A stretch of 64,000 nt of DNA from an uncultured Planctomycetales bacterium. GTDB lineage: Bacteria; Omnitrophota; Gorgyraeia; Zapsychrales; Fredricksoniimonadaceae. Of the stretch, positions 36,001 to 58,648 are shown one piece after another. Positions within the stretch are counted from its first letter, which is position 1, and each line of letters starts with the position of its first letter. The stretch covers positions 371 to 64,370 of the forward strand of contig CAZFNI010000010.1 of assembly GCA_964520655.1 (NCBI GenBank). Direction: 5' to 3'. A program made the position numbers and the translations under genes. Under the pieces are notes generated by a model. It made no database searches. It had not been told where the DNA came from and worked only from the letters and a program-made list of their open reading frames with translations.

Positions 36001-39000
36001 TGGCCGATCAGATCATCGCTAAGTCCGGTATTAATTCATCCGCCTCCGCGGAAGATAATATGATCTTGGCCGTAGATCGTCAGACATTCAATGCCTACAA
36101 AGCGCTGCATTTGGAATTAATGGCCGCGGCAAGCAATCCGGCAGAGAAAGATGAAGCCATCCAAGCTTCCACGCAATGGTTCATGCGCTGGAAGATCAGC
36201 CCGCTCAATGCCCAGATGATCGTTGCCGGTTTAAATAACGGTAAAGGATTCACAGATCTTAAATCCTTATTGATGATCGATAAGAAGGATTCTTACTATA
36301 AGGCCAAGGATATCCAGCCGGGCCACAGCGTTGAAGGTGTGGAAGAAGTTGAAGAAGTTGAAGAAGTCCCGGCGGCAGTGCAGCCTGCGGATGTTCCTCA
36401 AGGCCCGTCTTACGCCGATCAATTCAATACGGAATACGGCGCGGAAGAGACCCAGACGATCGATGTCGAACCAATGGCGCCGCCAGCACCAGCCGACCGC
36501 AACAATATCAATGATTTCGATAATGAATTGCCGGTCATGCCGCAAGCGCCGCTGCCGCCAGCACCGAATAATATTCTGCCTAAAGTCGGTCCTTTATCCG
36601 ACGCCACAAATGATGTGCAATATGATAATGTCATTGAACTCTCGGCCGTGATGGCTGCGGGCAGGAGAAACACCGCGAAGTTAGAAGGCGAAGGCGGCAT
36701 TGCCACCGATGCCATGCCGGCGACCGGAACAGGCGACGAAGCGATGACATCTGTCGATCCCAACGATCCTTTGAAAGATAAGAAAGCTGTATTGCCCCAG
36801 ACCAATAAAAGCGGCAAAATGCCGCTGGATGAAGGCGGCACCACCGCTCCCATGAGGACCCCGACACTGCCAGGACCCATCGGCAACCCTGTGTCTGTGC
36901 CAGGCACAGCTGCGGCGCAGCCCACAGGTCCAGTGGCTGCCAATAATCCATTAGAACCAGCAGCACCTGAGGCGCCCGCGCCCAACACAACACCGATGGC
37001 TCAAAATAGTCCTTCGGCCCAAAATACTCAGGCACGGGTTGCGGCACCAACACCTTCTCCTGTACCAACTCCGTCCGCGGCAGGCGGAGCCCCGGCTGTA
37101 CCGCGCGCATTGACTGGCCCGCAAACGCCGCTGGGAATAACCTATAATCCGAGTGCTGTTGGATCCCAGGCTGAAGCGCCGCCTCCAGGGGCCTCACAGA
37201 CAACAAGAACAGCTCCTGCTGAACCGGTCAGTGAGCCAATACCATTACAATCACCTATTCCAGTGCCCGCGCAACCTTCTGGGGCTGGGTCAGGCTTAGT
37301 ACCGATCGTTTATGCGATCAGGCAATTGAGATATCAAGTCACAGAACCAGTTCCTACCGGTTCAAGATTAAGGGGGTATAATCCGTTTGCCAGAGTGCTT
37401 TTAAAAACGGCGCCGGATCACGCCCCGGGTCGTAACCCATCTGTCAGCGATTTCTCCGATCGCTCCGACAGAAGAAATGTAGGAAATGGAGAAAATGTAC
37501 AAACGTTTGCAGTACAAGCAGTTGCAGCAAAATCAGTAGTTTCTGTAAAATTAGCAGAAAATGACTTAGCGCAAGCTATGTCATCAAGCAAAAGCAGCAC
37601 AAAAGCAGTACAAGCAGCAAATCGTAGCGCCGAAGTAGCAGCAAGTGTCAACGCAGTACAGGTAGTACGTAGTGTTGCACAAAGCAGTAGTAGTAACAAT
37701 GTCCAAACTGGTAATAAGTCCTCCCTTAGGGGTAGGATGGCAGCGCAAGTAGCAGAAGCAAGAGCTGTAGTGTCAATGGACATTATGGCGGAAACACCTA
37801 GATCTGACAGGACTGTTTATAATAACAGTGCCGCTGGTAATAGTAATAGCAGCAGAGTACATATAGGAAATACTGCATCAAGCCTACGTGCAAGAAGTGT
37901 GCGCATAGACTCTGGGCACGGTATAGATAGTGTAGGTAGACTGTCTAGTGCTAGGGCTATATACACAGATACTGCCATAGGTGTGAGTGCTCGAGATTTG
38001 CCAACCGGGCTTGCCGGGGATGGTCTGCGTATGGGGACTGTTTCTGGAGGTTCAAGAAGTGTTGGCTTCTATTCGTTATTGTCAAAACGAGCACTGACAT
38101 TCAGCCAAACTAATCTCACACAAGCACAATTAAGTATCATCCGTTTCATCCATCAAAAGGGGAGGTACGTATGGTTACCGAACTTAAAATTAACCACATT
38201 ATCCGCGTCCGCGACGACGACTCCAGGATCGCAACCGCACGCGACGCAAACAACAAGATCCACATTTACCGCATCAGCAAACTGGGCATCATCACCAAAC
38301 ATAACGGGCTTAAATCCACATGGGATCCTGTTGAGGCCAGGATCAAGGAAAGTCTCCGCATTCTTATTGACGCCGCAAGCAAATTCGGCCGCAGTTACAA
38401 GATCGACCACGTCTGATCCATCACTCAATTCTAATAATGTTTTTGATCATGCGCGTATTTGGCTAGCCAAACAAAGCCAGGGCCGCTTTGTGTTTGACAG
38501 GGCACAGCGCGCATCCTGGAAAGACGCGCTCCAATCTATCCGCAGAGATCTATGGCAATACATCGCTGTTGCGGTGGGGGGCGTGATCGGTTCTGCGGTG
38601 ACGGTTGTCGCCATAGAAAAGGGATGGATCTCGCCGCGGGCCATCGAGATCATCCGCGTCAATACCTGGATTGTTTTAGGCGTATATGCATTTAAGGTAT
38701 TGATCGACCGCGTTTTTGGTAAGAACGATCGATCAGCTTCTTCCAAAGAAGAAGGCACAAAGAACGACGAAGACAAGAAGATATTGTCCGTCGCCTTGGT
38801 TTTAGGCACCGGGGCGGCCTTGATGTCTGTTTTAGGATTTACACCTGACGCCGAGGCGGCGCAGGCGCATTTAACACAACACAACGGAGGTGCACTATGG
38901 TTAAGATCACCAACATCATCGACATTCCCAGCACTAACAGCCACATTGCCACGGCCAGGGATGAACGCAACAAGGAGCACATCTTCTGCATTACCGATGA

Positions 39001-42000
39001 CGGTCAGGTCTTTAAACGCAAAGGCCGCAGTAAATGGGAAGAACTTACGGGTGAGCGCGCCAAACGCGTTATCTATACCACCTACGAAGAGTTCTGCTCC
39101 AGCGGCGAGAAAAGACACAGCGTCGAGGGCTATGTCGGCGTTCCGCTCTTTATGGCTGCAAAATAATCTGCGTGATGTGGGTGGCATGACCTCGCCCCTG
39201 TTAGGAACAGGGGCCGGCCTGGGAATTGTTCTGTTGGGGCTTGGTTTAAGAGCGCGCCGTCTCAGTGGCGCGCTTGGGGCAGGCGGATATTGGGGCAATG
39301 TCAGTGACGACCTGGAGAAACAGATCAGGTCCGTTCTACCCCGGGCCAGGGACATTAAAGGCCGTCGCCTGCCGGTGGAATTCAACGGCGTGCCTGTTCA
39401 GCACAAGTATTTCGAAAAAGAGTTTTTTGAGAAAAAAGATGTTTCATTTATCTGGGCAGCTAAGAGCCGAGGGAAACTGGTCATTTATTTTTCTTCATAT
39501 GGGCTCTTTACGCAATTGACCCGAGAGTTCCCCCATGAAAAGGAGTTAGAGAAAGCGCTCGAGATGGTTTATTACCACGAGATCAGGGAACAATATTATT
39601 TATCACGCGGGTGGGGGCGCGGCGACAGCCACCGGTTTGCCGTGACTGGCACCCGTATCCAGTATCTGCGTGAGAAGGACATTCTCTCTAGAATAGAATC
39701 CCTGATCGATCCTCTGCCAGCAGCAGCTAAGGACCATGTGCGCGTCCACATTGGCAAGAATGACGCCGAGGAGCTGGATCTAGGCGCTGCGCGTGCCGAT
39801 GCGATCGTACGGCAGCAAAAGGGACGAATCAATATAGCTGTCGGCGGCGGGGAAACAGTCCCGGCACTCCTGGATGCCTGGGTGAGGTTGATCGCAGAGA
39901 ATCTGCCGCTCTACAAAAGCATCATCTCCAGGATGCATGTGTTCATGGTGTATGAATCCAGGAACAGCAACACGCATCAGGTGGTGATTGATAGATTCAT
40001 CACCCCGCTTAAGGCCATGGGCATCAGCGTTGACAGCAAACAGATCCATGCCGTAAATTTACAAAACGCGCATACGCTTGAGGAATACAAAAAGATCGCG
40101 AAGGATTACACCATCGCCATGAGGAATTCGTTAGGTCCCAAGGACCAGTTCGATCTGATCTTAAGCGGGGTTGGCCAGCACGGTGAATTCGCCGGTTTTG
40201 AATCCAATTCACCGGTCATTTATGCCGCCAAGCCGGTGATGATCGCCTTTGAGCGGCGTGACGGTGTTTTGATGACCTCACTGACACCGGATGTGTTCCG
40301 TAAGGCCAGGAACATTATCCTGGTATTGATCGGGCCCCATAAGCGCGGAGCGCTGCTGGATATGATCGCCCCCGAAGGGTCCATCGGTCAGTCCCCGGCC
40401 AGGGTGATCCATGAACAGTACTGGGGCCAGACGGACATTTACACCGATCGTTCTTCCAAGCGCTGGCCGCAAAAAGAATTTTTATTGGATGATGGGACTG
40501 TATTTTTCGCGGATGTGCATGAGGGGCTTAAAGGATCGGATGTGGTCATTTTTATTCCTGGCTTTCATGACCATAATTATGACCAGCAGTTCCGCGGCCT
40601 GCCATATGCCGAGACCATCGTTGTGCGCCGCGACGATCTGCCGGTGAGATTAGGCAAAGATGAGGTGATGGCGTATTACGCACAAAAGATCAAGGCGGTC
40701 ATCAAATATTATCAGGACCAAGGCCGCCGGATCAAAGTGGTGACGCATTCTGACGGGAATGAATTCTTTGGATATTTCCTGGCGCATGCCGCCATGGATA
40801 TTCAGCCGATCGCCGCGCTTGACCGCATCAGCCCATGGAATGCGGCGGATATCGCTTTTGTTATTGAGCGGTTTGCTCAACATAAGCTGGGCCCCGCGGC
40901 TTTTGGGATCGGTTATGTCTCCCCATTGCTGGCATCGATCATGAGCTCGTCCTGGGGATGGTTGCCGATGCTTGGGCCCGCGGCCAATGAAATGCTGCGC
41001 TCATTCATCGCTTCGAACATGGATGCCTTCAGCAGCCTGTTTGACCAGGAGGATGCCACGTTAAGCGGTCAGCTGCGCCGTGATGACCTGGAGTCATCCA
41101 TGGAGATCCCGCTGGAATTGCTGTTCGCGGAATTGTATGCCGTGTCTCATCAAGACAAGGAAGTCACGACCAAGGCACAGGAACGTCTGATCGCCTGGGG
41201 AACGTTCGTGACCACGATCGCGCCTAAAGAGGACAATATTAGCAATGTCAAACGCATCGCGGAGGAACATCAACGATTTATCAGCATGAAAGGGAAAGGG
41301 GAACTTGTTGAATTATCAATCGATCCTAAAGGCGGCAGTTCATTTACGCAGGCCCATTTTATTCACCGTTTTGCGGCGCGGGTGAATGCCTTGATCGCCA
41401 GATTCCCCGGCGATGAAACGATCGTGCCTTCTGCGGAGACAGCGTTTGAAGGGATACAGGCAGCCTTAAGCATATCAAGAGAGAAGGGCCATACATTACT
41501 GCGTATTCATTTTGGTCAGGATGAGATCGACGTGCGGGCGCTTGCGGCTAATGTGGAAGATGCACAGATATATATTGATGATCTCACGACCCACCAAAGG
41601 GTTGTCAATTACACCATTGACCAAACCCGCCGGTATTCAAGCTCGGTGACGCTGCGTTTTAAGGACGGTGAATTACCCGCGGCGTTCTGGATCAAGATCG
41701 GGCAGGGGATCGAGAACACCATCGTGACAAGAGGGGCGGTCGATAAGAAGCTTCGTCCGTATTCATTCTTTGTGACTAAGGATGCCCATGGTCAGCCGTT
41801 CCCGCAAAGTCCAAGAACCGCGGAAGAAGCGTATGGGCTGATGCAGTCATATCGGATATCTGACGATGAAACCCAGGACCATGCCATCAGCGCGTCAGGA
41901 CAGATACTGGCAAGCACGGTCAATAATCATTTTGCTGCCAGGTTTATCCGGCATGCCGATCTGATCCAAAAGATCAACCGCTATTTAGGCCGCGGCGACC

Positions 42001-45000
42001 CGTTGGGAGCGCCGCTGGCGGTGCGCGAAAAAGGTCGGGTAAAATGGTTTGTGGAACCGGACCGTCTGGTGACCATATTATCGCAAGAACTTTCCGAATC
42101 AGAGAGAATAAGCGTTGTTGAAGCGCTTTCCGTTGTCCGCAGCTTTCTCCTTCATGAGTCACGACCGACGGAGAAAGAGGGTATTGCTGCCCAGATCACT
42201 GGGTTTATCCAGGAAGAAGAGATATCCAGAACACGTGACGCTTATGCGACGATCCAGGCGGCCGCGCGTCAGGGCGGTATCAAGACCCTGCAGCAGCTGG
42301 AGAAAAAATATCGCAAAGACCAAACCCTGATGTTCAGATTTGAACACCGTACCGCAGAAAATGTCATTATTTTGTACCGCTGGCCAACGCTCTTTGACGT
42401 ACCGGAAGTCCATAAGGTTCACAATGATATTTGGTTCAAATTCCCCAAAGAGCAGATGTCGCTTTTGCAGGTATACGCTCAGATCCAGAATTATCAGCGC
42501 GGGCATGTTGTGGCGGAAGTTTTTGATTTAAATGTCCCTGGCCGGCAGTACATTTACGCGCCGATCTGGAGCGTGCGGGTCAATGTGTCTCGTGATCTGG
42601 CCCGTCGACTGATGTTTTCTGATGTGGCAGGAACGATGTTTCAAACAGTAGATGCCTTGACCAATGACAAGACGCTTGACGGCGTCGTATCCGTTGACGG
42701 CCAATGGACGTTTAATTATGCCACGGGTCTACCGACAACCAAAGTCGCCAATCAGGACGCGGTTGCCGGGTATCTTGTCAAGGGCAAGCCGCTCAAAGGT
42801 ATTGATGATGGGTTGGTCATGACCCAGGCGTACCAGCAGCACCGCGACAGGATACGGTTCTTAAGAACATACAGCCCGATCACCGCGCTTGGCCTGCATT
42901 GGAAAAAAGGCGCGTTCAAATTTAATTTTGGTGAGATTCCCGATGGAAGATACCCTGGGGCGCATGCGATCATCATGGCCTACCCCTGGCATGATTTTAT
43001 GACCATTGGCAAAGGGCGCTTCTCTGAGAAGCTTTCCAGGGTAGTGATCGTGCCTTCGTATCGTTTTGGCATTGACCGCATCGCTTCACCGGTCGATCCG
43101 GATAAGGAAGAATTGGTCATTCGTGTCGCGGTTCCCGGGTTCAAGCAGGCCTTGCCGCGCAATAACCCGCTGCGCCGTCCTTTTGTGAAGGTTAACAAGG
43201 ATCTGATCCTCAGGAATGGGAATAATCATTACCGTGTTCCTGAGATCTTTAACATGACCGCGGTCGGACATGCCAAAGCATTGCTTAAACGGTATTTAGG
43301 GTTGGATACCATCACCTTGGCATCACTGCCTGAGCACAACGGCATGAAGCTCACCGTCGCTGTATTAGGTGACCATGAGACCCGCTCATTTAAACCGTGG
43401 ATCAATTTTGGGGTGATCAAAGCTCTGCTTAAGAACCGTCAGATCAATACGGTGGTCACCGCAACGACAGGAAATCAGGGTATCGCGCTGGCCTGGGCCG
43501 TGCGCATGCTGGCTAAGACCATGAAGAGGGAAGATCTGAAAGTGATCGTCTATGTCGGTGTTAATACGTCAGAAGCGAAGATCGCGCGCATGCGGGAGTT
43601 CGGCGCCATCGTCATTGGGGATCCTTCCCGCAACCCGGATGTTGTTTTCGAGAATTATGAAGCAGCTTATCAGGCGGCGCTTAAATTCTCCCAGATCCCC
43701 GAGATCAAGGAAAAGACATATTTTGTGGAACATGCCAACCGTGCGGCGATCTTGGGGTATGCCGCATTAGGATCAAGGGTTTTGGAGATCTTGCGTTCAC
43801 AGGATAACGCAGATCATTTGGCTATTATTGTACCCGTCGGGGCCGGAGGTCTGGCCAGCGGCTTTGCAGTTGCGTCACGATTGGAGAAAGATCCGACCAA
43901 GGTGTATATAGTCCAGACAACACGGACAAAGCATGCGTACATCTCGTTGTTGACCGGTAAGAGGGTCGTATTTGCCATGCCTCAAAGTCAAGAGTACGAC
44001 GAGAACGGCATCGACACTAAGAGTCTTGAGCCAATGGCATTAAAGACACTGCGCACTACCGCTGATGGTTTGGCGTTAGTTGACCCGACGCTGATACCTC
44101 AGACGATCGCATATTATCGCGCCCAGGGGATCATTGCTGAGGGGGCCGCGGTATTGCCATATTTGGCGCTGGAGGCCTTGAAGGAAGAATTGGCAACCAA
44201 AGGCATCACCCATGTTCTTTTGGTCGCAACCGGCAGCAATGTCAGCGATGCTGCGCAGAGTTCTCGGGACATCATGAGGCATGAAAGGGCGGCGGCACAT
44301 CGTTTGTACCAGGCCACAAGGAATTTGGAAAAGAAGCGCGCCAAGAACGGGCTGATGCCGATCGTCTCTGTTGGGGCGGCCACGTTTGAGCAGGGCAGGA
44401 GCGTGCATACGGCTTTCAATGATTTTAGCGTGCACGCTGAGGGGAATCTTGTTTTTGATGTGTTGGCCAGTCAGGTTAAGAAGGCACATCCAGCACTTCA
44501 AGAGCCATTAGACCGTCTCTATGCGCTAGTTTCAATGAGGAAGCTGTCCCGTGATCAGACGTCATTCAAACGCCTGGTCAAAATATCCGCGCAATTGGGC
44601 CATCCCATGAAGGGGCTGGATGTGATCGTGACATATGAACCTTGCCCGAGCTGCTTTAATCTCCTTTTCTCCGTCGGTGTTCGCAAGGTATTTTATATCG
44701 ACGCGCATCCTAATGATGAGTTCGCGCAAAAGCGCGGGCATGCCGGCCTTATGAAGGTACAGTTGGAAAGCTTGGCCAGGAAAAGCTTGATGAACCAAAG
44801 GTATAAGCACTTAGTGGCGCAGGACCAGATGGCATTTAGCGATGATCAGCGGGCAGCGCAGGATGTCTTTGCCAATTCATTCAGGCAATGGTTCAAAGAT
44901 CATTTGAATGCCAGCATTGCCGATGTCAGGGGGATGAAAGAACAAATCGGGAATGTTAGCGGCGCAATGTTTTGGAAGATGCCGCGCGGTGACAAGGGGA

Positions 45001-48000
45001 TGGCCTCTCTGAAGCCTGGAGTGCATTCTGGGTCATTGTCCTGGATCGATGGCTTACGATCGAATATCCGCATTCTCCACAATTGGTCCGCCGAGGAACA
45101 GATATTTGCGGCTGATCTATACCGCAGTCAGCCGGAAGTAAAGAAAGCATTTTTGAAAAATGCGCGCATCACCATGGATCTGGAAGCGTATTTAAATTCG
45201 AAAGGAATGCTCCCATTGGGGGTCATTGCCCGCCGTGAGAGCATTAGAACCAAAGTCAAGGATCTGGACCTGGGGTGGCGATGGCTTATCCGAACCGACA
45301 GTCATGAGAATGCAGAAGATGTTATTTTTAGAGTATTGACCCAGGAGCTTCCGGAGGATCAGCAGTTGACGCCGCGTGAAGCGTTGATGTTCATCGCCCA
45401 GGTCAAAGCACATGAAGAAGGAAAAAGCGAAGCGAAAGGCATTGTCCGTCAATACAGAGACATTAAGGCCCGCAATGCTGTTGAACCGAAATTGCGCATT
45501 GATCCGGTGTGGGCCAAGTCGGAGCAGATTAAGGATAGGATCAGGAAGCTTATGAATGTTCTGTGGCATGTGATCATAGGGATGGCATTTATTGCGCCGG
45601 TGATTAATTCAGAACTTTGGATCGTGGCTGCAGTGTATACGGCAGGCATGTGGCTTGCGGCTGCTTTTTGGATATTGATGTTATATTTCTCTGAGGTCCT
45701 GATGGTTATTGGCTGGGGGATCCTGGGGCTGTTTGTCTCTCCGGTGCAAGCCAAGATGGAGTTTGTTAACAGGATATTGACCGCGGCTTTTGCGGCAGCG
45801 ACCGGGATCGCGGGCTATCAGGTGTGGAATATGCCCAACGACGCCAGATCATGGCTTGTTTTGATATTTTTGGGGATCTTTACACATCGGAATCTTTCGG
45901 TGGATATCACCATCAAGCAGGATAATGATGCGCTGGACCTCACCCCCGTCTATGACTTAAGGTCAGGCAAAGAACGCAGCAACATCACCACCGCCTTTGA
46001 TAAGACCGAGGGGATCACGCTCCCCTGGATATACGGATTTAGTCCACAAGGCGGTCATACCGACGAGGACATCAACACGGCCTTACAGTATCTTAAGCGT
46101 ACAGCGCCCCGGAAAGCCTTGTTGCTTAAAACGCTGGTGGACGAAAATCGTTTGACTTTTGGGGCTGACGAAGCGTTCCACTCGGCCTGGGTGACTAAGA
46201 ATGGCCAGCAATACTTGTTGATAAGCGTGATGGAGTCCGAGGACAAGGCCAGGGCTCTGGTGCGTGCGATCGCCGGAAAAGAAGCGGTTTCAGGCTTTGA
46301 CCAGCTTAAGCGTGTAAAACAGACGATCTCCTCATCGGGAGGCGCCTTGGTCAATATCAGCAGCGGCGGGGCCATTTTAGATGTTGTCGCGGCCTATTAT
46401 GAGAACACAGATGCCGGGAAATTCAGCCGTTTCTGGTCGCTGGTTGACCAGAAGCAGATCTATATAAGCCGGCAGGTAGAGCAAACCCGATGGGAGGGCG
46501 ATGAGCTGCTGGTATCATTGTCCAATGATAAAGAACTGTCGCATGAGATCGTGGGGGCCATGGCTGTCCAAGGCGAAACAGCGCAGGGAGAGATCGATCG
46601 ATTGAGGCGGTGGCTTGAGGATCACACATCTGGCAAGGGACTAATGGCAAGTTGGGGCATGTCGGATCAGCAGATCGCTCAATTATCTTCCTGGGGCAAA
46701 GAGCAGCTGTTGAAGATATTCAAGATCGCCTGGCCGGAAGACATGGTGTTAAGTCTGCCAGCTGGGACTACGGGGAATTTGATCTGCTTTGAGCCAGTAC
46801 TCTATAAGATCAACCGTCCAGTGTTTAGCGGTGACCTGCTCTTGGTCCAAATGGCGGTCCTGGCTCAACGCAGGCGGCTGACAGGTATTATTGACGAGAA
46901 GGCGCGTTATGCCGCGGCGCTGTTGACTACGGCAGTTCCTTATTTATTAGACCTGCGTCGCGATGAGGATAGAAAGCAGGCGCTGATCACAGCCCTGGGG
47001 CCTGGGAATATGGGAGAGCAGGATACTCTGGCGACTTTTTACCGTCGGGTGTTGAACGATACGGCTTTGCAGAGGCCGGAAGATCTTCTTGTGCATCTTG
47101 CCGGAATTTTTGACTTGGATGAGGATTCCGTTGGAATGATCGGGACTGTTGACCATGCCCAGGCATCTGTAGTGCCGGGGGATAGTTTTATTGATCCCGC
47201 GCGCAGTGAGCCGCCGCTGGCCGTCTCGCATCAACCTTTGGTCATGAAGATCGCGCAGGAGCATATCCATACACATATGACCCCGTCACATTTGGATATG
47301 ATACGCGACGAGGATGGGCACGTTCAAGAGGATGCCTATACGGGAATGCGCAGGGATATTGAGAGATTCTTAAGGCAGATCGGGGATCTGCGGGCCCTGC
47401 GCATTTTTCAGGGAACGGTCATCCTCCCGTTTACGCCGGGTCTTCAGGACAGCTTGCAGGAAACGTTTTGGGGTGCATACACATTCCAGGGGTTAAACGG
47501 GACCTGGCAGAGAAACGCGGAAACATATCCAGTCATCATTGCCAATGATGCCGAATCGATCGTCCATGAGCTGTATGCTTTAAGCGGCAGGGAACATCAT
47601 CTGGCGCATGCCCATGAACAGGCGGAATATAAGGCTAAAATATTCACACAATGGCTGGAGTCACATAATGATTTTAATATTTTTTATTCCGGGCCCAAGC
47701 CGCATCGCATGGGCGCTTTAGGGTTGCTGAAAAAGATCATCCCGAGAATGGCGTCCGCATTTGCCGCCCAAGGTCAAGAGGCAAGGATTAATGTACTTTC
47801 CTGGGGAGGGGTGAGGCACCTGGAGCTTCCGGTGAGCACTGAGGGGCTGAGGGTCCTGATGTATGTGCTTGAACACAACCGCATGAATCTTAGTCAGTGG
47901 AACAATGTCCGTCTAACCCCGGATAATTTTAAGATCACTGTTGTTGCCGACCGCTTGGACACGCTCGATGCCAAAGCGTTTAAGATACACCTGAACCATT

Positions 48001-55867: not shown

Positions 55868-57247
55868 TCAGTGACGATCATTCATTTTTTTTCGCAATTC
55901 GGCGAGGTCTTTCTTTAGCGCGTCGATCTGATTCTGCTGTTGTTTGATGGCTTCGATCAAGGCTCCGACAAGGTTCTCCATAAAAACGTGTTTAATGCCT
56001 TTTTTATCCGTAAAGACAAGTTCCGGGAACACTTTTTCCACGTCCTGGGCGATCACGCCCAAAGATCTTTTTTTGTCTTTCTTCCAGGTAAAGGTAACGC
56101 CTCGCAGCGCTCTTACCTTATTTAAGGCATCGGTGATAGGCGTGATGTTCTCTTTCAAACGTTCATCGGAGGGGGCGCCGTAATAATACCCGCCGCTTAA
56201 GTTGTAAATATCTCCGTCAACGCCCATGTCGCCTAAGACATACAAGCGATAAGAAGCGTTCGGTGCCGCGCCGACCCCGACGCTGCCGCTTAAGGTGGTT
56301 GTGCCGACAGCAACATTTAAGGCTCCGCCCGCAATGGTGACCCCGGCATTGAAAGTGGCCAGGCCGGTGGTGGATAATGTTCCCCCGACGGTGGTATTGT
56401 TGGATAGGGTGGTAACGCCCGTGACACCAAGTGTGCTATTGACCTGCGTGGCCCCGCCCAGGGTTGTTGCTCCGGTGACATTTAACGTGCTGTTGACCGC
56501 GGTAGCGCCATTTAAAGTGCTTGTGCTTCCGGCGGTGAATGTGCCGGGACTGGTGACAGAAAGGGCGGTGGAAACATTGGCTGTGGCAAGGGTTGTTGTC
56601 CCGCTGACACGGGCATTGCCGGTGACATCCAGTTTCTGGGTTGGAACCATGCCGATCCCAAGTCCCGTTGAGGTTAGCCGCATTTGCTCCGCGCTATTAG
56701 TGTAAAAGGTAAGTGTATCAGCCGCGGGGTAGCTTAAATAAGTCGTTGTTCCGCCAAGATACAGGTTTGGGTTTGCGGCACTTAAGATCATATTGCCGTT
56801 GACGTCGAGTTTCTGAGCAGTAGCACCGGCGGGATTGATGCCCAGATTGCCGTTTGCCTCAAGGGTCATCTGGTCAGCGCCGTTGTTGATCCGAAAGTGT
56901 ATGGCCTGCCCAGCAGGGCGGTTAAAGTACAAGGCTTGGTCAGCCGTGCTGCTGCGGATATGCGCATTGGCGCAAGTCCGGTCGCCGGCCAGTCCTATTC
57001 CCACAAAACCCGCGCAGCCGGTTGCTTCTCCGATAGCAACATTGGTCGCTACCGTCACGTTTGAGCCGGCGTTGACGGTGCCGACACCAATATTATTAGC
57101 CGTTAAGATGTCATAATTGCCTGTTGGTGCCGGATAATAGGTGTTGATCGTATTGGATCCGGCAGCTGATGCCGTTAAGGGGGCCGCGAATACCGCCGTT
57201 AACAGGAACATCAGTAGTCGTTGTTTGGTCATCCAGGAATATGCCAT
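55868..57247 (-). CDS. secreted tail-fibre-like repeat protein with C-terminal Peptidase_S74 intramolecular chaperone domain (paralog 1)
   Basis: Signal peptide, then Thr/Gly/Asn/Ala-rich beta-repeats (TGATTLGGATQVNSTLGVTGVTTLS...). The last 100 aa, SDERLKENITPITDALNKVRALRGVTFTWKKD..., match the SDxRLKxNI auto-cleaving chaperone signature (nt 55871-56170). Confidence 0.7.
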   Translation of the reverse strand: MAYSWMTKQRLLMFLLTAVFAAPLTASAAGSNTINTYYPAPTGNYDILTANNIGVGTVNAGSNVTVATNVAIGEATGCAGFVGIGLAGDRTCANAHIRSSTADQALYFNRPAGQAIHFRINNGADQMTLEANGNLGINPAGATAQKLDVNGNMILSAANPNLYLGGTTTYLSYPAADTLTFYTNSAEQMRLTSTGLGIGMVPTQKLDVTGNARVSGTTTLATANVSTALSVTSPGTFTAGSTSTLNGATAVNSTLNVTGATTLGGATQVNSTLGVTGVTTLSNNTTVGGTLSTTGLATFNAGVTIAGGALNVAVGTTTLSGSVGVGAAPNASYRLYVLGDMGVDGDIYNLSGGYYYGAPSDERLKENITPITDALNKVRALRGVTFTWKKDKKRSLGVIAQDVEKVFPELVFTDKKGIKHVFMENLVGALIEAIKQQQNQIDALKKDLAELRKKMNDRH

Positions 57248-57265: not shown

Positions 57266-58648
57266 TTATTTGTTAAGGGTCATTTTCATTTGCTCGATCT
57301 CTTGTTGAATTTTGTCGAGCTGCTGCTGCTGGTCTTTGACATCCTCGATTAAAAGGCCGACCAGGTTTGGGTACTGCACATGTTTAAATTTTTTTCTGTC
57401 TTGATAGACCAGTTCCGGGAAGTTTTTCTCCACGTTCTGCGCGGTTAGGCCCAGGGCTCTTTTCTTGCTGTCTTTCCAGGTGAAGTAAACCCCTTTAAGT
57501 GATCTGGTCTTGGTTAATGCGTGTGTGATGGGAAGGATATTGTCTTTAAGCATCTCATCCGATGGTGCCGGGCCGTATTTGTATTCACCACTGATATTAT
57601 AAAGGTCTCCATCAATGCCGACCGCCTCAATGATGCCTGCTTCCTTGACGATCAGTCGATAGGGCAATGTGGGGGCTATTCCCATCCCGGTGCTGCCCGT
57701 TAAGGTGGATGTGCCGGCAACGCTTAGATCGCCCCCGGCAATGTTGATCCCGCCCGGGTTAAAGGTGGCAAGCCCGGTTGTGAGCAGGGTGCCTGTGACC
57801 GAGGCATTGCTTGATAAAGTGGCAATGCCAGTAACGCCAAGCGTGTTGTTGATCTGCGTGGCCCCGCTTAAGGTTGTTGCGCCGGTAACGGCCAGCGTGC
57901 TGTTGATGGCTGTTACCCCGTTTAGAGAACTGGTGCCTCCGGCGGTGAATGTGCCGGGATTGGTGACGGCAAGAGCGGTGGAAACATCAGCGGTCGAAAG
58001 AGAAGTGGTCCCGCTGATGCGGGCATTGCCATTAATATCGAGCTTTTGTGATGGGGCATAGCCAATGCCAAGACCGGTTGAATTCAGGCGTATTTGTACG
58101 AGGCTGTTGGTGTTAAAAGTTATGCTATTCGCAGAAGGGGAAGTTAAAGAGGTGGTCGCGCCTCCGAAAAAGAGGCTTGGGGCGGCTGAGCTTAAGATCA
58201 TATGACCGTTGACATCTAGTTTCTGAGCAGCAGCGCCACCGGGATTGATGCCCAGATTGCCGTTTGCCTCAAGGGTTATCTGGTCGGCGCCATTGTTGAT
58301 CTTATAATGGATATTCTGCCCAGTTGGCCGGTTGATATACAGAGCGGTGTCTCCCGAACTGCTGGAGAGTTGATAACTGGCGCAGGAAGCACTACCCGTA
58401 AATCCGATAGCGCCATAACCGCCGCATCCTTCTCCAATGACGGCATTATTGGCAATGGTCAGGTGGTCGCCGACAGTTGTTGTGCCCACCCCGATCGACC
58501 GGGCGTATAAATTATCATAATATGTCCCTGGTCTGGGATAATAGGTGACCATGGTCAAAGAGCCGGCATAGGTGATCAAAGGGAGGATGAGGACGGCGAA
58601 AAGCACAGCAGGCCATAATTTCAGTTTCATATTTAAAGTATACGACAC
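57266..58648 (-). CDS. secreted tail-fibre-like repeat protein with C-terminal Peptidase_S74 intramolecular chaperone domain (paralog 2)
   Basis: Same architecture as paralog 1. SDEMLKDNILPITHALTKTRSLKGVYFTWKD at the C-terminus (nt 57269-57562). The N-terminal TYYPRPG.YDNL...IGVGT block is shared with paralog 1. Start may be the internal MKLKL at ~58630. Confidence 0.7.
   Translation of the reverse strand: MSYTLNMKLKLWPAVLFAVLILPLITYAGSLTMVTYYPRPGTYYDNLYARSIGVGTTTVGDHLTIANNAVIGEGCGGYGAIGFTGSASCASYQLSSSSGDTALYINRPTGQNIHYKINNGADQITLEANGNLGINPGGAAAQKLDVNGHMILSSAAPSLFFGGATTSLTSPSANSITFNTNSLVQIRLNSTGLGIGYAPSQKLDINGNARISGTTSLSTADVSTALAVTNPGTFTAGGTSSLNGVTAINSTLAVTGATTLSGATQINNTLGVTGIATLSSNASVTGTLLTTGLATFNPGGINIAGGDLSVAGTSTLTGSTGMGIAPTLPYRLIVKEAGIIEAVGIDGDLYNISGEYKYGPAPSDEMLKDNILPITHALTKTRSLKGVYFTWKDSKKRALGLTAQNVEKNFPELVYQDRKKFKHVQYPNLVGLLIEDVKDQQQQLDKIQQEIEQMKMTLNK

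Follow-up and report, generated by a model that had tools for sequence, protein, structure and literature searches.

Phages and viruses are known to carry overprinted genes, such as lambda Rz1 within Rz and phiX174 E within D. Well-supported cases of same-strand nesting in bacterial chromosomes are, to our knowledge, few. In Bacillus subtilis, the small out-of-frame gene comS lies within srfAB of the surfactin synthetase operon and is co-transcribed with it (PMC12915044). The giant genes of the Omnitrophota encode N-terminal C39 peptidase domains, many enzyme domains and many internal transmembrane helices, which average 22 in proteins of at least 10,000 amino acids (aa) (10.1101/2023.11.21.568195; 10.64898/2026.06.07.730766), and only sparse peptides could be mapped to such giant proteins in the 2023 preprint (10.1101/2023.11.21.568195). 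A term search of the same two preprints returned no mention of frameshifts, small open reading frames (ORFs) or nested genes in giant ORFs. The locus described here lies in a stretch of 64,000 nucleotides (nt), hereafter the window, from contig CAZFNI010000010.1 of an uncultured bacterium placed in the Omnitrophota by its GTDB lineage. It consists of a giant ORF (186 to 49187, plus strand, 16,333 aa) and of two small genes, termed A1 and A2, contained in it. All features discussed are on the plus strand unless stated otherwise.

Like comS in srfAB, A1 and A2 are small complete genes with their own starts, on the same strand and in another frame of a very large multi-module gene whose own frame is left intact. 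The differences are that two paralogous genes of 81 and 89 aa are nested here, with a predicted folded beta-plus-helix domain, that they overlie a disordered linker and a disordered loop next to a putative membrane anchor rather than an enzyme module, and that the host is an Omnitrophota-type giant gene; the present case is also known from sequence alone. The host itself resembles the Omnitrophota giants (West-Roberts et al. 2023; class 1 of the 2026 preprint on 176 complete Omnitrophota genomes) in having an ORF that runs uninterrupted for more than 10,000 aa, with an N-terminal C39 peptidase domain (PF03412, aa 120-184, E = 2.3e-7 against Pfam), many different enzyme domains, internal transmembrane helices every few hundred to few thousand residues and an orphan-like sequence. 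It departs from them in that Pfam reports no SecA DEAD-like domain at E <= 1e-3 in aa 1-10,000; a Walker-A/DEAH-like stretch can be seen by eye in the translation. As in phage and virus overprinting, a single strand codes in two frames, one conserved and one that tolerates change, and one frame dictates the codon composition of the other; the locus differs in residing on a cellular chromosome, where the constraint lies on the nested frame and the host frame need only remain open. The nested pair is thus a further example of a known arrangement in a new setting. We consider it probable that positions 186 to 49187 form one continuous Omnitrophota-type giant gene that is read through, with two nested out-of-frame genes inside it.

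A1 (38171 to 38416) and A2 (38897 to 39166) are complete ORFs with a start and a stop, wholly inside the giant ORF. The giant ORF occupies f0, the frame whose codons start at positions divisible by 3, and both small genes are read in f2, which is the -1 frame relative to f0. Each is preceded by the Shine-Dalgarno (SD) sequence GGAGG, located at 38161 to 38165 for A1 (5 nt before the ATG) and at 38886 to 38890 for A2 (6 nt before the ATG); the two rank first among the SD sequences of the window, and among the alternate-frame ORFs of the 49-kb gene only A1 and A2 combine a five-base SD match with an ATG and a positive codon score. The two products share 33% identity when compared in f2 (E = 4e-10), whereas the same DNA compared in f0 gives E = 1.2, and on this similarity A1 and A2 are paralogs. 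For a comparison between strains we used 11 contigs from independent public runs which are 98.6-100% identical to the window and carry no indels, so that an assembly frameshift is ruled out. The organism is present in the Logan runs SRR26835473, SRR34753054 and SRR16481182. All ten single nucleotide polymorphisms (SNPs) found in A2 fall on the third codon position of f2, with a chance expectation of (1/3)^10, and every one of them is synonymous in f2 and amino-acid-changing in f0. Structure prediction points the same way: the f2 product of A2 modeled with AlphaFold2 (AF2) from a two-sequence alignment gave five strands and a helix (predicted local distance difference test, pLDDT, 77; predicted template modeling score, pTM, 0.67), whereas the same DNA read in f0 and treated identically consisted largely of coil apart from a single helix at the C-terminus (pLDDT 57, pTM 0.19). 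For A2 the case is carried by the SNPs, the AF2 model and the ATG with its SD; for A1 by the ATG and SD, by paralogy with A2 and by the positive f2 codon score. These data show that A1 and A2 are genuine, selected coding frames and support their separate initiation.

The explanation that A1 and A2 are chance ORFs, with f0 alone coding, could draw on their isolation in the databases. A2 compared with 5.8 billion proteins retrieved only itself, no homologs outside the species were found in metagenome contigs with the A1/A2 alignment as query or in viral contigs, and neither gene has a match in Pfam, NCBIfam, PHROG or the PDB sequences. The fold was no more informative, as Foldseek gave no significant match in the PDB or BFVD (best hits: PmrD, E = 0.4; a phage protein, E = 0.03). 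The substitution pattern of A2 already contradicts a chance origin, however, and so do the paralogy and the confident fold, both confined to f2, as well as the strong SD and ATG at both genes. We give this explanation hardly any credence.

A different route into f2 would be programmed -1 frameshifting from the giant frame into A1, and perhaps into A2, yielding a truncated giant protein that ends in an A domain. The frame relation is the appropriate one, and a heptamer A AAG GGG in f0 phase at 38156 lies just before A1, overlapping the SD-like GGGGAGG. Such heptamers nevertheless number 53 by chance in the ORF, none precedes A2, the ATG of each small gene is optimally spaced from its SD, and no RNA element was found; we therefore regard frameshifting as very improbable. 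Terminators and promoters predicted in the region did not exceed chance, Rfam gave no match there and no meaningful repeats were detected.

The second line of evidence concerns the giant frame itself. As stated in the initial annotation, f0 contains no stop codon, and we found none between 186 and 49187 in the window or in any of the strain contigs (11 of 11 open). The f0 reading of the A1 DNA (38172 to 38414) is a stop-free linker rich in Thr, Ser, Ala and Pro, and that of the A2 DNA with the adjoining spacer (38898 to 39185) is a stop-free loop rich in Ala, Ser, Pro and Thr that is predicted to be disordered. Stops occur in the +1 frame of the giant gene at 5.3% per codon, or about one in every 19 codons, and windows of 82 and 96 codons are open in that frame at frequencies of only 0.0055 and 0.0010. 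When the codons of A1 and A2 were redrawn according to genome usage while keeping their proteins, f0 was open in 0.13% and 3.9% of the trials, respectively, and the joint chance of an open f0 across both genes under genome codon usage is about 1e-5 to 1e-4.

The cause can be traced to codon choice in the nested genes. Only f2 codons that end in TA or TG can give rise to a stop in f0, and the scarcity of NTA and NTG codons in A1 and A2 therefore prevents f0 stops. Among codons with T in the second position (T2 codons, Phe and Met excluded), only 1 of 38 ends in A or G in A1 and A2 together, the corresponding share in reference genes being 45% (Fisher P = 5e-9). C occupies 0.49-0.54 of the third codon positions of the two genes (0.54 in A1) as against 0.22-0.37 in every other gene. 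A pyrimidine at the third position of an f2 codon is also a pyrimidine at the second position of an f0 codon, which hence cannot be a stop and yields Thr, Ser, Ala or Pro. This composition matches that of f0 over A1 and A2 as well as that of the low-complexity linker located upstream. The giant frame is thus non-randomly open, and a stop-avoiding codon bias exists in A1 and A2. That f0 is kept stop-free over both genes implies that ribosomes which translate the giant frame have to traverse them.

Between and after the two nested genes, f0 encodes a cluster of hydrophobic segments. Helices were called from hydropathy only (Kyte-Doolittle windows of at least 1.6), and 4 of the 12 such windows in the whole giant protein are clustered at 38550 to 39248, a grouping far from a random one. 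Helix 1, LWQYIAVAVGGVIGSAVTVVAI (38550 to 38615), has an Arg-Arg-rich stretch ahead of it; helix 2, IIRVNTWIVLGVYAFKVLI (38649 to 38705), is the weakest of the four; helix 3, ILSVALVLGTGAALMSVLGF (38781 to 38840), follows a Lys/Arg-rich loop. These three segments had been listed in the initial annotation and are all present. Helix 4, LLGTGAGLGIVLLGLGL (39198 to 39248), lies beyond A2 and is followed by the basic cluster RARR, the whole element (39198 to 39260) having the features of an internal anchor with its basic residues on the C-terminal side. Five Lys or Arg residues precede helix 1, seven lie in the loop joining helices 2 and 3, and RARR follows helix 4; this distribution is compatible with an in-out-in-out-in topology, in which both flanks would be cytoplasmic.

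The host-like coding character attributed to frame 0 in this segment could be reproduced, f0 being the sole frame with a positive codon score over 38450 to 38800, and along the locus the coding signal alternates in the order f0, f2, f0, f2, f0. The segment does not behave as a gene of its own, as had been proposed for 38417 to 38896. It has no stop and no ATG before helix 1, its sole candidate start is a GTG at 38490 that lacks an SD sequence, and the proposed start at 38417 is one base off the frame, whose first codon here begins at 38418.

The in-frame ATG at 39186 to 39188, put forward in the initial annotation as a new start with a signal- or membrane-like N-terminus, is most likely an internal methionine codon. 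It is in f0 as claimed, but at 19 nt after the A2 stop and not twenty. The preceding GGTGG (39180 to 39184) exists as well, and with its end 1 nt before the ATG it is too close to serve as a ribosome-binding site. A hydrophobic run does follow, the protein reading MTSP, 17 hydrophobic residues and RARR; with no Lys or Arg ahead of the run and the basic residues behind it, such an N-terminus would, judged by eye, fall short of a Sec-type signal peptide and show the reverse charge order, typical of an internal anchor. The ORF from 39186 to 49187 is 3,333 aa long rather than 3,334 aa.

A variant of the continuous gene should be considered at this point, in which read-through is accompanied by additional initiation at ATG 39186 or 39132. 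The C-terminal multi-enzyme part would then also be made as a protein in its own right, roughly 3,333 aa long and equipped with a short N-terminal tail and a membrane anchor. The position of ATG 39186 directly downstream of the A2 stop makes it a plausible reinitiation site, which tells against exclusive translation as a single chain. Gene callers applied to the short strain contigs also start the downstream piece at 39132 or 39186, usually skipping the membrane segment, and with a short N-terminal tail in front of the helix and RARR, the product could be anchored in the membrane with its N-terminus outside. On the other side, there is no usable SD sequence, no homolog begins at 39186, and the openness of f0 across A1 and A2 would be left unexplained, so that such initiation would add to the read-through model and not replace it. 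We consider it possible, though rather unlikely.

Two sequence features next to this ATG deserve mention. One is a strain SNP pair at 39177 to 39179 that converts the f0 codon GTG into ATA (Val to Ile). An ATG start newly created at 39177 in some strains was considered and rejected: the same strains carry both SNPs, and the two changes in one codon give ATA. The other is a Gly-Gly directly before Met 39186 (39174 to 39188, ..DVGG-M..) in a protein that has a C39 domain at its N-terminus. Peptidases of the C39 class cut after Gly-Gly, and post-translational cutting at this place is an idea that the sequence might accommodate; the residues upstream of the Gly-Gly deviate from the consensus of classic double-glycine leaders.

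Beyond the anchor, the first folded module allows a comparison with other proteins. It is an un-annotated conserved module in f0 (39285 to 39785) with the pattern GYxGN..FIWA..(V/I)YFSS..HExxE..H, which reads GYWGN..FIWA..VIYFSS..HEIRE in the giant protein. It has no Pfam or PDB match, and its invariant His/Glu pattern hints at a metal site. The module recurs once in a 1,467-aa protein (P0027, position 1095) and three times in a 4,260-aa metagenome protein (P0004, positions 3060, 3572 and 4083), and is thus internal in all detectable relatives. In P0004, the first copy is preceded by four hydrophobic helices arranged as two hairpins, with a helix and RRRRR about 35 residues before the module. 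The order is therefore the same in both proteins, namely four helices, a basic cluster (RARR in the present case) and then the module, and P0004 offers a parallel for helix 4 as an internal anchor.

A third relative (P0003, 3,669 aa) shares a lactonase-hydrolase block and a C-terminal block (E = 8e-47), both of which are internal. The corresponding blocks in the giant protein, lactonase-hydrolase (39705 to 40787) and C-terminal methyltransferase-like plus HD (47619 to 49151), are separated by about 2,280 aa as compared to 236 aa in P0003, a difference in spacing which amounts to module shuffling among large multi-enzyme proteins. An exhaustive HMMER search of 1.84 billion representatives returned domain-level matches only, with none over the helix cluster, the loop overlapped by A2 or the N-terminus at 39186. 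No homologs were obtained for f0 positions 38418 to 40400, a query of 39186 to 40700 against genome contigs found nothing, and the module alignment used as query gave nothing useful, including in metagenome contigs. A stand-alone counterpart of 39186 to 49187, which the initial annotation would lead one to look for, was thus not encountered, since no homolog in the exhaustive search starts there; f0 is open in all strain contigs.

A number of observations weigh against a continuous giant frame preserved by selection on the nested genes. Codons of A1 and A2 that cannot create an f0 stop end in A or G in 21% of cases, compared to 48.5% in reference genes, so that f0 may owe part of its openness to a codon usage that is unusual for another reason. 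Permuting the genes' own codons left f0 open in 35% of the trials for A1 and in 100% for A2, and the numbers behind the surplus bias in the T2 codons are small. In A1 there are just two SNPs, one synonymous in each frame. The weakness of helix 2 makes an even number of helices uncertain. The helices of P0004 resemble those of the giant protein in arrangement only and not in sequence, the likeness by homology being limited to the module. Finally, no search recovered a relative carrying this junction, so that the comparison of the junction is one between closely related strains.

The permutation result would in particular suit a reading in which A1, a small membrane protein, A2 and an enzyme protein of 3,333 aa are encoded by four separate cistrons, preceded by a giant gene that is likewise separate, and in which the open f0 is incidental. 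This corresponds to the operon proposed in the initial annotation, of which the part concerning A1 and A2 holds while the splitting of f0 into stand-alone proteins does not. The small genes are real, with their own SD and ATG, and the alternation of the coding signal between f0 and f2 is what four cistrons would produce. In the absence of an f0 stop, however, neither the upstream ORF nor the membrane segment can terminate, and the latter has neither an ATG nor an SD sequence to start from. The low joint chance of openness under genome codon usage, the near-absolute avoidance of stop-prone codons, the conservation of the open frame in all strains and the internal position of the downstream module in its relatives also speak against this reading. 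We judge it improbable, and the start at 39186 on which it depends has, besides its poor ribosome-binding site spacing, a following module that is internal in its only detectable relatives.

The explanation that we favor is accordingly the continuous gene with two nested genes, and its steps can be outlined as follows. Ribosomes in f0 would translate a disordered spacer over A1 and helices 1 to 3, followed by roughly 119 residues of loop that overlie A2 and separate helix 3 from helix 4, then helix 4 with RARR, and continue into the enzyme modules. The four hydrophobic helices (about 38550 to 39260) would form an internal membrane anchor joining the GGDEF-containing part of the protein to its downstream multi-enzyme part, and ATG 39186 would encode a methionine inside the protein, at the beginning of helix 4. 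The same long mRNA would serve for the independent translation of A1 and A2, each from its own GGAGG and ATG to its own stop. In the dual-coded stretches the small genes would hold the conserved protein, and the giant frame would be a freely drifting, disordered spacer rich in Thr, Ser, Ala and Pro, kept stop-free by the pyrimidine-ending codons of A1 and A2 and their near lack of NTA and NTG. That read-through translation of the giant frame actually occurs is what we infer from this arrangement.

With respect to function, a guess based on location would make A1 and A2 accessory or regulatory partners of the giant protein. A more specific and only tentative proposal is that they are a lineage-specific folded pair, overprinted on disordered spacers, which act as dedicated partners of the giant protein in membrane insertion, processing or regulation, and whose synthesis is coupled to the passage of ribosomes along the 49-kb mRNA. 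If this were true, the stop-avoiding bias would be direct population-level evidence of the end-to-end translation of Omnitrophota giant ORFs. Independently of the roles of A1 and A2, their codon bias bears on the question of whether such ORFs are translated as single chains, as it constitutes sequence-level evidence that read-through matters. The two stretches of the giant frame that have no conserved protein sequence of their own and are nonetheless stop-free offer a precise place to probe it. For annotation purposes, the giant gene is best kept whole, with no split at 38417 or 39186, and two nested coding sequences should be added.

The remainder of the giant protein and its surroundings agree with an Omnitrophota origin. 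Pfam identified two GGDEF stretches upstream of the helix cluster and, downstream of it, 6-phosphogluconolactonase-like and PALP domains above the Pfam cutoffs as well as a weak deaminase match below the cutoff. An alpha/beta hydrolase was added by eye and by homology to P0003, and the C-terminal methyltransferase-like and HD block was likewise recognized from P0003 homology and by-eye reading. The best domain match (P0002) comes from Candidatus Omnitrophota. The chromosomal neighbors of the giant gene are the housekeeping genes glmS, rsmI, pyrB and pyrC, and the closest GlmS matches (57-65% identity) are mostly from metagenome-assembled genomes of Candidatus Omnitrophota; a synteny check of Omnitrophota loci around glmS revealed no related giant gene.

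Upstream of A1, f0 runs through a long low-complexity stretch rich in Pro, Ala, Ser and Thr (36500 to 38170), in which the f0 codon score is weak yet the best of the frames and 9 of 22 SNPs are synonymous, as in a fast-evolving disordered linker. Within it, one strain contig (L007) displays 12 SNPs in 250 nt of a Pro/Ala/Ser-rich linker (37263 to 37513), and three others (L002, L004 and L006) all start exactly at 37513, so that this strain-variable stretch seems to break assemblies. The longest minus-strand ORF inside the giant gene (38447 to 39385, 312 aa) lies antisense to the helix cluster and A2. It was considered as a gene and rejected, the A2 SNPs falling on its first codon position, and is probably a by-product of the two constrained plus-strand frames. 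Outside the giant gene, two adjacent minus-strand ORFs of about 460 aa each (55868 to 57247 and 57266 to 58648) have no NCBIfam match and may be paralogs.

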